64,000 nt of DNA from Escherichia coli (GTDB lineage: Bacteria; Pseudomonadota; Gammaproteobacteria; Enterobacterales; Enterobacteriaceae): the NCBI RefSeq assembly GCF_003790525.1, contig NZ_CP033635.1. One strand, 5' to 3'. This document shows positions 4,691-12,988 of the stretch, in pieces. The translations under genes were made by a program, and so were the position numbers. The notes under the pieces are model-generated. The model searched no databases. It was not told the DNA's origin and saw only the letters and a program-made list of their open reading frames with translations. Within the stretch, counting starts at the first letter, position 1. Each line of letters begins with the position of its first letter.

Positions 4691-4767
4691 TGGCGGAACG
4701 GACGGGACTCGAACCCGCGACCCCCTGCGTGACAGGCAGGTATTCTAACCGACTGAACTACCGCTCC
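4691..4767 (-). tRNA. aspV: tRNA-Asp (GUC)
   Basis: Reverse complement reads GGAGCGGTAGTTCAGTCGGTTAGAATACCTGCCTGTCACGCAGGGGGTCGCGGGTTCGAGTCCCGTCCGTTCCGCCA, including CCA end. Confidence 0.97.
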
Positions 4768-4899: not shown

Positions 4900-5631
4900 T
4901 TATGCCCGCCAGAGGCAGCTTCCGCCTTTCTTCTGCACCAGATCGAGACGGGCTTCATGTGCCGCAAGCTCTTCATCTGTCGCAAAAACAACGCGTAACT
5001 TACTTGCCTGACGCACAATGCGCTGAATTGTTGCTTCACCTTGTTGCTGTTGTGTCTCTCCTTCCATCGCAAAAGCCATCGACGTTTGACCACCGGTCAT
5101 CGCCAGATAAACTTCCGCAAGGATCTGGGCATCGAGTAATGCCCCGTGCAGCGTTCGTTTACTGTTATCTATTTCGTAGCGGGCACATAACGCATCGAGG
5201 CTGTTGCGCTTACCGGGAAACATTTTCCTCGCCACCGCAAGGCTATCGGTGACCTTACAGAAGGTATTGGTCTTCGGAATATCGCGCTTAAGCAACGAAA
5301 ACTCGTAGTCCATAAAGCCGATATCGAACGCTGCGTTATGGATCACGAGCTCCGCGCCGCGGATATAGTCCATGAACTCATCGGCAACCTCGGCAAACGT
5401 GGGCTTATCGAGCAAAAACTCATCGGCAATACCATGTACGCCAAAGGCTTCCGGATCCACCAGCCGATCGGGTTTGAGATAAACATGGAAGTTATTGCCC
5501 GTCAGGCGACGGTTCACCACTTCAACGGCACCAATCTCAATGATCTTGTGGCCTTCATAGTGCGCACCAATCTGATTCATACCGGTAGTTTCGGTATCGA
5601 GAACGATCTGGCGTGTAATTGCAGTGCTCAT
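4900..5631 (-). CDS. dnaQ: DNA polymerase III epsilon subunit (3'-5' proofreading exonuclease), 243 aa
   Basis: ORF 4900..5640; trimmed to [20 protein letters not shown]... the recognised DnaQ N-terminus. Confidence 0.93.
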
Positions 5632-5695
5632 AGCGGTCATTTATGTCAGACTTGTCGTTTTACAGTTCGATTCAATTACAGGAAGTCTACCAGAG

Positions 5696-6163
5696 ATGCT
5701 TAAACAGGTAGAAATTTTCACCGACGGTTCGTGTCTGGGTAATCCAGGACCGGGGGGATACGGTGCTATTTTACGCTATCGCGGACGCGAGAAAACCTTT
5801 AGCGCAGGCTACACCCGCACCACCAACAACCGTATGGAGTTGATGGCCGCTATTGTCGCGCTGGAGGCGTTAAAAGAACATTGCGAAGTTATTTTGAGTA
5901 CCGACAGCCAGTATGTCCGCCAGGGTATCACCCAGTGGATCCATAACTGGAAAAAACGTGGCTGGAAAACAGCAGACAAAAAACCAGTAAAAAATGTCGA
6001 TCTCTGGCAACGTCTTGATGCTGCGCTGGGGCAGCATCAAATCAAATGGGAATGGGTTAAAGGCCATGCCGGTCATCCAGAAAACGAACGTTGCGATGAA
6101 CTGGCTCGTGCCGCAGCGATGAATCCCACACTGGAAGATACGGGCTATCAAGTCGAAGTTTAA
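5696..6163 (+). CDS. rnhA: Ribonuclease HI, 155 aa
   Basis: ORF 5624..6163; trimmed to [26 protein letters not shown]...; divergent from dnaQ with a 64-bp spacer. Confidence 0.93.
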
Positions 6164-6882
6164 GCCTGTGGTTTACGACATTGCCGGGTGGCTCCAACCG
6201 CCTGGCGAATTCGTGGCTTGTTTTTACTCTGTTTCATCGGATTTAGCGTTAAAGGAATAGTCCGTTTCCGGGCGACAATAAGTTGTAAGCAACCAAGCGC
6301 AGGAATATGCGCATTCAATAGTTTTCCACCGTGTTTGTTCCACGGGAGAACGTGGAAACGGCTGGCGTGTAGCACTTCAAAATTCAACAAAGAGAGCCAG
6401 TCCAGTTGCCGCATCAGAGTAAACATCCGGCTATTATAGGGCGAGGTTTTGCGCAATACCGGCACAAGTTTGCGTAATCCCATTAAACTGATGGGGTTGA
6501 AGCCACTAATCACCAGCCAGCCATCATCAATCAGTACCCGATCGGCTTCACGCAATAAACGATGCGGATCGGTGCACCACGGCAAGGTATGTGCCAGTAG
6601 ACAAACATCAACGGATTTATCGGCAAAAGGAAGATGAAGTGGATCCGCCTGCACCTGGACGGGCATTCCTTGCGCAGAAACATTCACTTGATGAGAAACC
6701 GCGCACGCTTCGCAATTGATTTCTGCGCTTAAATTGCCAATCTTAAGCAGATGAAAACCATACATTTTAGTGAACCACGGGTTGAGCTGGCGCTCCAGCG
6801 CCTTGCGATAAAGCTCTCCCCAGGGCAAATCGCCCCAGCAATCAGGAGCCACGACAGTTTGAGGGACTCTTGCCGGTTTCAT
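6160..6882 (-). CDS. yafS: SAM-dependent methyltransferase-like protein YafS (about 240 aa)
   Basis: ORF 6160..6900; start chosen at [14 protein letters not shown]...; stop codon shares nucleotides with the rnhA stop. Confidence 0.8.
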
Positions 6883-6912
6883 CACAACCTTCCGTTTCAC
6901 ACTGAGAGGTAA

Positions 6913-7671
<759 letters not shown>

Positions 7672-9101: not shown

Positions 9102-9112
9102 CAAACCAGATA

Positions 9113-9150
9113 ATAAAAAAGGCACCGATTCCCCCGGTGCCTTTTTTATT
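9113..9150. terminator. Bidirectional intrinsic terminator between convergent mltD and yafE
   Basis: aaaaaa-GGCACCG-attccc-CCGGTGCC-ttttttattt: GC stem flanked by A-run and T-run. Confidence 0.7.
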
Positions 9151-9920
9151 TATGCCGCTTTATGTGCTTCTAACATGATGATATCACTGGTGAAAGAGCC
9201 ATCATTCTGCAAGGCAAAATACGTTTTCACCTCTGTCGATGCGCTCTGTTGGTAAATGCGAATAGCGTCTACTAACGCTTCTGGCGTACGCATTCTCGCT
9301 ACCCATGAAGAAAATTCCAGCGGTAACTTATCTGTAATTAAATTATCAACTATCAGATTGGCTTCATTGATTAACTTCAACCACTCACCGCTGGCGTAGT
9401 TTCGTACGTGAGAGGTATCGCGTAATGCTTCTACCGTCTGTAACCAGATGTCGCGCACTGGATGACCCGGAGACATTACGTCCATCACAATCAGCCTACC
9501 GCCGGGTTCCAATACCCGATTCACTTCACGCAGTGCTGCACCAACATCATGCCAGTGATGGGCAGAATAACGGCTGATAACAATATCAAATGCGTTATCG
9601 GCAAATGGCAGACTTTCGGCATAACCCTGGCGGGTGGTGATATTTTTCAGTTGCCGGGCTTCGGCAGCTTGTGCCACGACATCCAGCATTTGGGCAGATA
9701 AGTCATACGCCACCACCGCGCTCACGTTCTGCGCAGCGACAAAGCTGGCATGCCCTGCTCCGCAGCCCATATCAAGTACACTTGCATCAGGATAATCAGC
9801 CAGACGCACCGCCAGGCGCTGTAAATCTCGCCCGGATGCATGTACGGTACTGGTTAAATACTCACTGGCCTGCGAGCTAAACTGCTTTTCTACGTGGTCA
9901 TGGTGGGATTGTGTTGTCAT
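9150..9920 (-). CDS. yafE: Class I SAM-dependent methyltransferase YafE (256 aa as ORF)
   Basis: ORF translation with glycine-rich SAM-binding motif VLDMGCGAGH; N-terminal extent uncertain. Confidence 0.8.
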   Translation of the reverse strand: MTTQSHHDHVEKQFSSQASEYLTSTVHASGRDLQRLAVRLADYPDASVLDMGCGAGHASFVAAQNVSAVVAYDLSAQMLDVVAQAAEARQLKNITTRQGYAESLPFADNAFDIVISRYSAHHWHDVGAALREVNRVLEPGGRLIVMDVMSPGHPVRDIWLQTVEALRDTSHVRNYASGEWLKLINEANLIVDNLITDKLPLEFSSWVARMRTPEALVDAIRIYQQSASTEVKTYFALQNDGSFTSDIIMLEAHKAA

Positions 9921-9993
9921 TCTGTCCTTTTATTGTTTGATTAAAAAGGGCAGCGCCAAACGTTGGTCTGCCCTGTGGCAGACCTGACATACC

Positions 9994-10845
<852 letters not shown>

Positions 10846-11034: not shown

Positions 11035-11949
11035 ATGAAAGCCACGTCGGAAGAACTCGCCATTTTTGTTTCAGTCGTCGAAAGCGGCAGCTTTAGCCGG
11101 GCAGCGGAACAATTAGGGCAAGCAAACTCAGCGGTAAGCCGGGCGGTGAAAAAGCTGGAGATGAAACTTGGCGTTAGCCTGCTTAATCGGACCACGCGGC
11201 AACTTAGCCTGACGGAAGAAGGCGAGCGTTATTTTCGTCGCGTACAGTCAATTTTGCAGGAGATGGCAGCGGCAGAATCAGAAATTATGGAGACGCGTAA
11301 TACACCGCGTGGACTGTTACGGATCGATGCCGCAACTCCAGTGGTGCTGCACTTTCTGATGCCGTTGATTAAGCCTTTTCGTGAACGCTATCCGGAAGTC
11401 ACTTTATCGCTAGTCTCCTCCGAAACGATTATTAATTTGATCGAAAGAAAAGTGGATGTCGCGATACGCGCCGGTACGTTAACGGATTCCAGCTTACGTG
11501 CCAGGCCGTTATTTAACAGTTATCGAAAAATTATCGCCTCCCCCGATTATATTTCCCGCTACGGGAAGCCAGAAACGATCGACGATTTAAAGCAACATAT
11601 TTGCCTGGGATTCACTGAACCCGCTTCCCTCAATACCTGGCCGATAGCCTGTAGCGATGGACAATTACATGAGGTGAAGTACGGTTTGTCATCCAATAGT
11701 GGGGAAACACTGAAACAGCTTTGCCTGAGTGGCAACGGGATTGCGTGTTTGTCCGACTACATGATCGACAGAGAAATCGCTCGCGGAGAATTGGTGGAGT
11801 TAATGGCAGATAAAGTATTGCCAGTGGAAATGCCATTCAGTGCCGTATATTACAGCGACCGTGCGGTAAGTACACGCATCCGGGCTTTTATCGATTTCCT
11901 TAGCGAGCATGTAAAAACAGCTCCCGGAGGAGCTGTCAGAGAGGCTTAA
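11035..11949 (+). CDS. yafC: LysR-family transcriptional regulator YafC, 304 aa
   Basis: N-terminal w[45 protein letters not shown]; divergent from yafD. Confidence 0.9.
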
Positions 11950-12749
11950 TCCCATTCAGGAGCCAGACCTTCCGGGCTAACCAGGCGGTCGTTGCAATCC
12001 AGTGCGGCGATCGCTTTTTTATCTTCGGCATCAAGCTGTAAATTTTGTGCCTTAAGATTACTTTCCAGGTTTTTACGTTTAGTAGAAGAAGGAATTACGG
12101 AGTAACCTTCCCCCATAGCCCACGCCAGAATCACTTGTGCCGGAGTCGCATTGTGTTTAGCTGCGATACGAGCAATAACCTGATCTTTCAGGGCCTTACC
12201 ATACGCCAGCGTCATATAGGAAGTAATATGGATGCCGTGCTGTTTAGCCCAGGCGACCACTTTACGGTTTTGCAGATAAGGTGAGAGTTCAATCTGGTTA
12301 GTAGCGATGTTTTCAGCGCCAACAGCAGCAATCGCCTTTTCCATCAATGGGATCGTGAAGTTGGAAATACCGATCTCACGCGTCAGCCCTTGTTTTTTGG
12401 CTTCCAGCAGCGCCTGCATAAACTCTTCAACAGAGACTTCATCGTTTGGTGACGGCCAGTGGATTAGCGTCAGATCAACATAATCGATACGCAATTTTTG
12501 CAGGCTCTCTTTCAGACTTGGGGTCAATTTGTCTTTGCTGAGATTTTCAATCCAGATTTTAGTGGTGATGTAGAGTTCATTACGTGGCACGCCACTTTCT
12601 GCAATCGCCTGACCTACTGCGGCTTCGTTATCATAGATTTGTGCGGTATCAATTGCGCGATAACCAAGTTCAAGCGCCGTTTTCACAGATGAAATAACAA
12701 CGTCGTCTTTCAGACGGAAAGTACCTAAACCAAATGCAGGGATAGCCAT
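11946..12749 (-). CDS. dkgB: 2,5-diketo-D-gluconate reductase B / aldo-keto reductase, 267 aa
   Basis: ORF translation [22 protein letters not shown]... AKR family; stop overlaps yafC stop (convergent). Confidence 0.92.
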
Positions 12750-12911: not shown

Positions 12912-12988
12912 TGGCGGAACGGACGGGACTCGAACCCGCGACCCCCTGCGTGACAGGCAGGTATTCTAACCGACTGAACTACCGCTCC
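12912..12988 (-). tRNA. aspU: tRNA-Asp (GUC), distal tRNA of rrnH operon
   Basis: Same tRNA-Asp sequence as at 4691-4767, located immediately downstream of the 5S rRNA. Confidence 0.97.

Follow-up and report, generated by a model that had tools for sequence, protein, structure and literature searches.

Convergent genes that meet tail to tail with a minimal overlap, on one of the tetramers CTAA, TTAA, CTAG or TTAG, were described as a class in 2007 (Lillo & Krakauer, PMC2174442). Across the 58 genomes of that study, 672 of 1890 convergent overlaps (36%) measured exactly 4 bp and the other 1218 were longer. For E. coli, 58 convergent overlaps (116 genes) were recorded, with a rho-independent terminator predicted in the partner's coding sequence for 23 of the 116, and it was argued that genes in convergent overlap must carry their rho-independent terminators within the coding sequence of the partner (PMC2174442). 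A second described system is the excludon, for which a recent catalogue of E. coli MG1655 lists 165 convergent cases, dkgB-yafC and yafS-rnhA among them by name (ExcludonFinder, Sanmartin et al. 2025, PMC12288877). Membership there means overlap in at least 50% of 58 strand-specific RNA-seq samples, overlap is called when coverage past the end of the coding sequence stays above half of the gene mean, and in 146 of the 165 convergent excludons the predicted terminators overlap the neighbouring transcription unit (PMC12288877). In a third system, reported from SEnd-seq work (bioRxiv 10.1101/2022.10.23.513370), overlapping bidirectional terminators serve hundreds of convergent pairs in E. coli; they require a stem-loop and do not resemble intrinsic terminators.

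The DNA analysed here (the window) is a stretch of 64,000 nt from an E. coli contig (NZ_CP033635.1) with two junctions at which convergent genes overlap by 4 nt, a gap of -4. Gene coordinates follow the RefSeq annotation of NC_010498.1 (E. coli SMS-3-5), which is 100% identical over 9 kb in reverse orientation; window positions equal those of the extracted locus (L001) plus 2999. The genes and their common stops are:

5696-6163, plus strand: rnhA, RNase HI, 155 aa (RefSeq; Pfam RNase_H at residues 3-141)
6160-6882, minus strand: yafS, class I SAM-dependent methyltransferase, 240 aa (RefSeq; Pfam Methyltransf_11)
6160-6163: TTAA tetramer with the rnhA stop TAA at 6161-6163 (plus) and the yafS stop TAA at 6160-6162 (minus) (sequence, open reading frames, RefSeq)
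11035-11949, plus strand: yafC, LysR-type regulator, 304 aa (RefSeq; Pfam HTH_1 at 7-64, LysR_substrate at 89-293)
11946-12749, minus strand: dkgB, aldo-keto reductase, 267 aa (RefSeq; Pfam Aldo_ket_red)
11946-11949: TTAA tetramer with the yafC stop TAA at 11947-11949 (plus) and the dkgB stop TAA at 11946-11948 (minus) (sequence, open reading frames, RefSeq)

The overlapping ends proposed at 6160-6163 and 11946-11949 by an earlier sequence-only reading of the window were confirmed by the sequence (contexts gtTTAAgc and gcTTAAtc, respectively), by the open reading frames, which end at 6163 and 11949 on the plus strand and at 6160 and 11946 on the minus strand, by RefSeq, and by K-12 MG1655, where both junctions have identical 4-nt overlaps. 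Both overlaps have been annotated since the first K-12 genome. At each junction the coding sequences have 4 nt in common, the stops only the central TA (6161-6162 and 11947-11948), and the outer base of each stop also completes, as third base, the last sense codon of the partner. Within 130 nt on each side of the junction, K-12 and SMS-3-5 differ by 10 substitutions at rnhA/yafS and 3 at yafC/dkgB, and 5414 of 5426 complete E. coli genomes contain the 9-kb region at ≥95% identity. Two minus-strand tRNA-Asp genes with equal Rfam scores (4694-4767 and 12915-12988), the counterparts of K-12 aspV and aspU, flank the 8-kb block that holds both junctions.

The gene ends themselves are well founded. 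Residues 1-155 of RnhA match the crystallised E. coli protein without a difference (PDB 1rch/2rn2), and the DkgB C-terminus GLAPEWD is also the end of a solved homologue (3up8) and is kept in nearly all related loci examined. Over the last 25 codons of yafS in 26 species, the fraction of non-majority bases was 0.08, 0.12 and 0.39 at codon positions 1, 2 and 3, and variation concentrated at third positions indicates that this tail is translated. YafC ends in 11 residues that fall beyond its Pfam domains and differ between genera, and the frame is open up to the stop. Corrected gene ends, which the sequence-only reading had named as the observation that would remove the overlaps, did not emerge, the ends of RnhA, DkgB and yafS having been validated. 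Both pairs thus belong to the Y-TA-R tetramer class in every respect, being tail-to-tail coding genes with an exact 4-nt overlap and genuine C-termini. Their geometry, with its tail-to-tail arrangement, 4-nt coding overlap and common TA, is identical to that of the published 4-bp convergent overlaps and shows no difference in kind (PMC2174442); what is added here are the lineage histories of both junctions and the specific hairpins embedded in them.

The window contains eight convergent junctions between coding sequences, with gaps of 46, 53, 48, 155, -4, 48, -4 and 42 nt, and each of the six spacers (42-155 nt) folds to a strong hairpin of -18 to -58 kcal/mol. As a rough estimate, about 20 of some 650 convergent junctions in E. 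coli (~3%) would be of the -4 type, a frequency that rests on the published counts (PMC2174442) and the eight junctions of the window, the figure of ~650 being extrapolated from nine convergent junctions (these eight plus one tRNA-CDS junction) per 64 kb. On the same rough footing, two of eight at -4 would be a mild local excess (about 0.02), judged post hoc. No sign of a special function was seen at either junction, and both are real, ordinary and already known, 4 nt being the most frequent kind of convergent overlap. The overlapping-gene literature of Fukuda 2003, Johnson & Chisholm 2004 and Kingsford 2007 reportedly covers the class as well.

The histories of the junctions were traced in 80 species-representative loci obtained through a GloB search (Salmonella, Klebsiella and Yersinia are not among them), using both junctions where synteny holds and defining gene ends by tblastn followed by in-frame extension to the stop. 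The yafC/dkgB gap was -4 in 9 of 29 loci (Escherichia, two Citrobacter lineages and Pseudocitrobacter) and +6 to +71 in the other 20, and none of the 29 had an overlap deeper than 4 nt. In the Citrobacter freundii group, each gene ends in its own TTAA and the two lie ~20 nt apart; the E. coli sequence corresponds to this arrangement minus one TTAA repeat and the spacer, suggesting an origin by spacer deletion. A second, unrelated YafC tail (AGSFATRTQES) likewise ends at -4, which implies that this state was reached at least twice. Judged from these loci, the -4 state of yafC/dkgB appears young and labile. One locus, from Citrobacter sp. Awk 4 (L007 7761-7790), has an aberrant DkgB C-terminus, KAIAAWIATIAW, which suggests a frameshift near the 3' end.

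The rnhA/yafS junction appears, by the same comparison, to be old. Within the Enterobacteriaceae its gap was -4 in 27 of 33 loci, with all four allowed tetramers in use, and 0 (four loci), +15 (one) or -50 (one, Cedecea) in the remaining six; outside the family it was -4 in Photobacterium, +70 in Vibrio cholerae, +61 in Pseudoalteromonas and +401 in Idiomarina. In Cedecea (L034 6199-6248), a different frame of approach takes yafS past the -4 barrier and 50 nt into rnhA. Gene order was compared between the window (4900-6916) and loci L036, L040, L043, L063, L077 and L079 (at about 5700-7000). Among Xanthomonadales, Pseudomonas, an Ectothiorhodospiraceae genome and Burkholderiales, rnhA shares its strand with dnaQ and, where detected, with a yafS-like gene; in two loci read directly (Pseudomonas and Burkholderiales), the stop of the methyltransferase gene runs into the rnhA start in an ATGA overlap. 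By contrast, rnhA is inverted in Enterobacteriaceae, Vibrionaceae and Alteromonadales. The co-directional order in the other lineages points to an inversion that affected only rnhA in an ancestral yafS-rnhA-dnaQ operon, probably in the lineage to Alteromonadales, Vibrionales and Enterobacterales, after which the junction would have been compacted to -4. The convergent junction with yafS and the divergent one with dnaQ (64 bp) would both stem from this inversion.

The rnhA/yafS junction of several genera forms an inverted repeat that has the stop tetramer at its centre and folds to hairpins of -11 to -16 kcal/mol. For example, Kluyvera (L020 6239-6258) has CCGGACGC-TTAA-GCGTCCGG, in which the common stops lie in the hairpin loop and RnhA and YafS both end in the tripeptide PDA; similar repeats occur in L015, L019 (Pseudocitrobacter), L029, L014, L018 and L022. 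A stop-centred hairpin was rejected for the E. coli junction, where the fold reaches only -3.4 kcal/mol.

The sequence-only reading held that the two junctions leave no room for terminators. There are indeed zero intergenic bases, but a terminator scan and folding placed a hairpin followed by a U tract inside the last codons of the partner for three of the four genes (rnhA, yafC and dkgB), so that terminator-like elements appear to be displaced rather than absent. The predicted elements are:

11909-11936, minus strand: predicted intrinsic terminator of dkgB, ACAGCUCC-UCCG-GGAGCUGU followed by UUUUACAU, within the yafC codons for TAPGGAV; dG -14.4
11983-12026, plus strand: predicted terminator-like element of yafC, a 14-bp stem (11983-12016) with a 6-nt loop, followed by UUUUAUCUUC, inside dkgB codons
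6161-6228, plus strand: predicted 3' UTR hairpin of rnhA, long and imperfect (6161-6220), with its core at 6181-6208 and UUUUU at 6221-6225
6081-6118, minus strand: weak hairpin in the yafS sense, dG -6.0 kcal/mol, followed by UUCGUUUU, inside rnhA codons and spanning a published RNase III duplex

With terminators displaced into the partner's coding sequence, the predicted read-in would be ~35-75 nt and not unlimited. In the classical bidirectional form, one hairpin in a 40-50-nt spacer acts for both strands, whereas the -4 junctions have different hairpins for each strand inside coding sequence. The intergenic bidirectional intrinsic terminator between mltD and a yafE-like gene in the same window (9112-9150) does the same job of ending two converging transcripts. 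This perfect terminator also draws sub-threshold Rfam hits (CsrC 3' end, STnc40 and SpF25; 9108-9226), and sRNA genes at these positions were rejected, the hits matching the terminator. The yafE-like gene itself (9150-9994 region) encodes a class I methyltransferase, is 771 nt long and begins 73 nt past yafD, against a length of 624 nt and a distance of 3 nt for yafE of K-12. Between yafD and mltD, SMS-3-5 has ~218 bp more than K-12, pointing to an indel or a truncation in K-12.

The best conserved of the embedded elements is the dkgB hairpin, which begins 10 nt past the dkgB stop (running from 11936 down to 11909 on the minus strand). Among 19 loci from several genera, picked by a motif in the 5' arm of the hairpin, every stem position is paired (16 distinct sequences; 100% of cells). 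The tetraloop varies (UCCG, UUCG, UGCG, UUUG or UUCA), and the synonymous stem sites show a single difference, a compensatory UA-to-CG pair in Cedecea. Loci with overlapping coding sequences and loci with a gap of 20-32 nt both have the hairpin. Seen from the other strand, the C-terminal tail of YafC (yafC codons 294-304, 11914-11946) is essentially the translated dkgB terminator hairpin: the loop-encoded residues differ from genus to genus (G, E, A or K), while the stem nucleotides are constant, and other genera have unrelated YafC tails or an intergenic hairpin instead. Read-through from rrnH as the reason for a dkgB terminator was set aside, as there is a strong terminator behind the tRNA-Asp gene upstream of dkgB.

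The yafC-sense hairpin was the top hit of the terminator scan (z -2.5 versus shuffles) and is retained in most Enterobacteriaceae loci. The rnhA-sense hairpin lies inside the last ~22 codons of yafS, which encode the basic C-terminal tail of YafS; it has an MFE of -34.2 kcal/mol (z -2.2 versus shuffles; dG -28.5 for hairpin plus tail) and recurs in Escherichia and Citrobacter. Pairing in these two was 83.4% versus 83.1% in shuffles (yafC-sense) and 77.3% versus 75.5% (rnhA-sense), so that the covariation counts of both are indistinguishable from protein-coding conservation. Many other species have stronger equivalents of the weak yafS-sense hairpin, at -10 to -19.5. Recoding the partner synonymously, for hairpins chosen after being seen, gave z -2.5 (p about 0.014) for the yafC-sense hairpin in dkgB, z -2.8 (p about 0.01) for the rnhA-sense core in yafS and z -1.5 (p about 0.09) for the dkgB-sense hairpin in yafC; the yafS-sense region in rnhA, used as a control, gave z +1.3 and was not significant. 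For the dkgB-sense hairpin, the peptide sequence alone favours a hairpin under most recodings. The four gene names are absent from the 3'-end supplementary tables of Adams et al. 2021 and TERMITe 2025, and Rfam gave no hit with an E-value ≤1 at 6000-6300 or 11850-12050, its other matches being rRNA, tRNA and the sub-threshold hits at 9108-9226. Embedding of the terminators of three genes in the partner's coding sequence is therefore a prediction from scanning and folding; the position of these hairpins in the partner's last codons, and the conservation of the dkgB hairpin across genera, are what is new here.

Published transcriptome data bear out that transcription of each gene enters the coding region of its partner, as had been proposed, since there are no intergenic bases and both pairs are in the RNA-seq excludome; the strand-specific RNA-seq check suggested for the two junctions was in effect published in 2025, with both pairs named (PMC12288877). 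Only the two -4 pairs of the window's eight convergent pairs are in the catalogue, and the six pairs with spacers are absent from it (PMC12288877). However, a coverage-based call is near-automatic when the coding sequences already overlap, so that membership is weak evidence of regulation. Excludons are defined as a class by reciprocal expression, while the listing of the two pairs is coverage-based only. Terminators lying within the neighbouring unit, as in most catalogued cases, are present here by prediction only (11909-11936, minus; 11983-12026, plus; 6161-6228, plus), and the yafS element is weak.

The antisense overlap of 3' ends that had also been proposed is unavoidable by geometry, and for rnhA/yafS it is seen as double-stranded RNA. 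A perfectly paired RNase III duplex, captured with p19, was recorded on both strands at K-12 235581-235603, with 105 and 89 reads (2020, PMC7373196 Table S3). It lies 43-68 nt inside the rnhA 3' end, at about 6095-6117 of the window, which indicates that yafS-sense RNA reaches at least this far. No comparable duplex was seen for yafC/dkgB in the consulted part of that data set (PMC7373196). At gene level, antisense reads for the four genes amount to 1.9-5.9 RPM against 16-44 RPM in sense, and 5' overlaps have a 38-fold higher density of p19-captured dsRNA than 3' overlaps (PMC7373196). Actual transcriptional interference, which the sequence-only reading had raised as a potential outcome, left no sign in the published data examined, where antisense reads are only ~2-6 RPM. 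At its other end, yafS has a much stronger overlap: its start codon and that of gloB lie 33 bp apart on opposite strands (window 6838-6916; K-12 234816-234860), and p19-captured RNase III duplexes are very abundant at the yafS 5' end, with up to 7765 reads and 207-2607 RPM for yafS at gene level, so that this divergent overlap far exceeds the 3' overlap with rnhA. K-12 also annotates a tiny ORF, ykfO, antisense within gloB.

Taken together, the two junctions are minimal 4-nt Y-TA-R overlaps in which -4 is very probably a passive boundary and nothing special. A gene ending in NNY-TAR places a TAR stop, shifted by one base, on the opposite strand, and a converging reading frame in that register cannot read more than 4 nt into its partner. 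Loss of the spacer between convergent genes would then find its stopping point at -4, with both proteins retaining their own C-termini at no coding cost, and mutation of the central TA would destroy both stops together. For yafC/dkgB, the spacer would have been deleted between the two TTAA repeats of a Citrobacter-like arrangement; for rnhA/yafS, inversion of rnhA alone in a yafS-rnhA-dnaQ operon would have been followed by compaction to -4. Hairpins that normally occupy a 40-50-nt spacer are here embedded in the 3' coding sequence of the partner, with predicted transcript ends at ~11910 for dkgB, ~12020-12026 for yafC and ~6225-6228 for rnhA. The yafS transcript reads at least 65 nt into rnhA and, having only a weak hairpin, is probably ended by Rho or by polymerase collision. 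The mRNA pairs would have ~115-135 nt of complementary 3' ends in common (predicted at about 11910-12025 and about 6085-6228), giving low-level dsRNA. Against a purely passive boundary, the long-lasting -4 state of rnhA/yafS could reflect selection on the overlap itself, and the excludon catalogue makes a case for the function of such overlaps (PMC12288877).

The alternative that survives best is that head-on collisions of RNA polymerase at stem-loops, and not intrinsic terminators or Rho, chiefly determine the 3' ends, a reading that we consider unlikely as the main mechanism and that is compatible with -4 as a passive boundary. It draws on the SEnd-seq report of bidirectional terminators at hundreds of E. 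coli convergent pairs, on the lack of a convincing terminator for yafS, and on the palindromes of -11 to -16 kcal/mol centred on the rnhA/yafS stops in several genera. However, the E. coli rnhA/yafS junction has no such central hairpin (-3.4 kcal/mol), three of the four genes have ordinary-looking intrinsic elements with a hairpin and U tract, and the genes are weakly expressed (16-44 RPM sense), whereas the collision model reports lower termination efficiency for lowly expressed pairs. Overlapping bidirectional terminators (Ju et al. 2019; Wang et al. 2022) likewise involve convergent transcripts that overlap at their 3' ends and carry stem-loops, but use one common element, in contrast to the two separate strand-specific hairpins with U tracts predicted at each junction here.

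Less probable still is a selected regulatory excludon, in which antisense 3' ends, head-on transcription and RNase III cleavage would give mutually exclusive expression within each pair. The presence of both pairs in the MG1655 excludome as the only two of the window's eight junctions, the RNase III duplex in the rnhA 3' end, and the retention of -4 at rnhA/yafS in 27 of 33 Enterobacteriaceae loci and in Photobacterium are all in keeping with such a role. However, the excludon call is near-automatic for overlapping coding sequences, antisense reads are low (~2-6 RPM), the density of captured dsRNA is 38-fold greater at 5' than at 3' overlaps, and the retention of -4 can be attributed to the double cost of mutating the common TA. 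In addition, the yafC/dkgB overlap is labile, with spacers in 20 of 29 loci, the dkgB hairpin persists with or without overlap, indicating that the coding overlap itself is not what is conserved, and no functional link is known between the partner genes.

A narrower proposal, to which we give very little credence, is that the rnhA/yafS overlap has been selected since the Enterobacteriaceae ancestor, with antisense 3' ends and the packed gloB/yafS and rnhA/dnaQ divergent junctions coupling RNase HI to its neighbours, and with the embedded hairpins as dual-coded elements under their own selection. An annotation artefact, in which one gene end of each pair would be wrong and the genes would not truly overlap, could appeal to the poor conservation of the YafC tail between genera, but is effectively refuted because stop codons, unlike starts, are set by the reading frame, RnhA and the crystallised protein agree through the final residue, DkgB has a conserved end, the yafS tail varies as coding sequence does, and the K-12 and SMS-3-5 annotations are identical at both junctions.

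The two junctions matter little as discoveries, the class having been analysed statistically in 2007 and the RNA-seq overlap of both pairs having been published in 2025. Their value is modest and lies in two case histories of how convergent genes reach -4, one old and stable (rnhA/yafS) and one young and labile (yafC/dkgB), which illustrate two routes, namely inversion of a single gene and deletion of a spacer between TTAA repeats, and which also illustrate how terminators can end up translated as protein tails. If the embedded terminators are confirmed, synonymous recoding of these genes, for example in genome refactoring, would need to preserve the hairpins.
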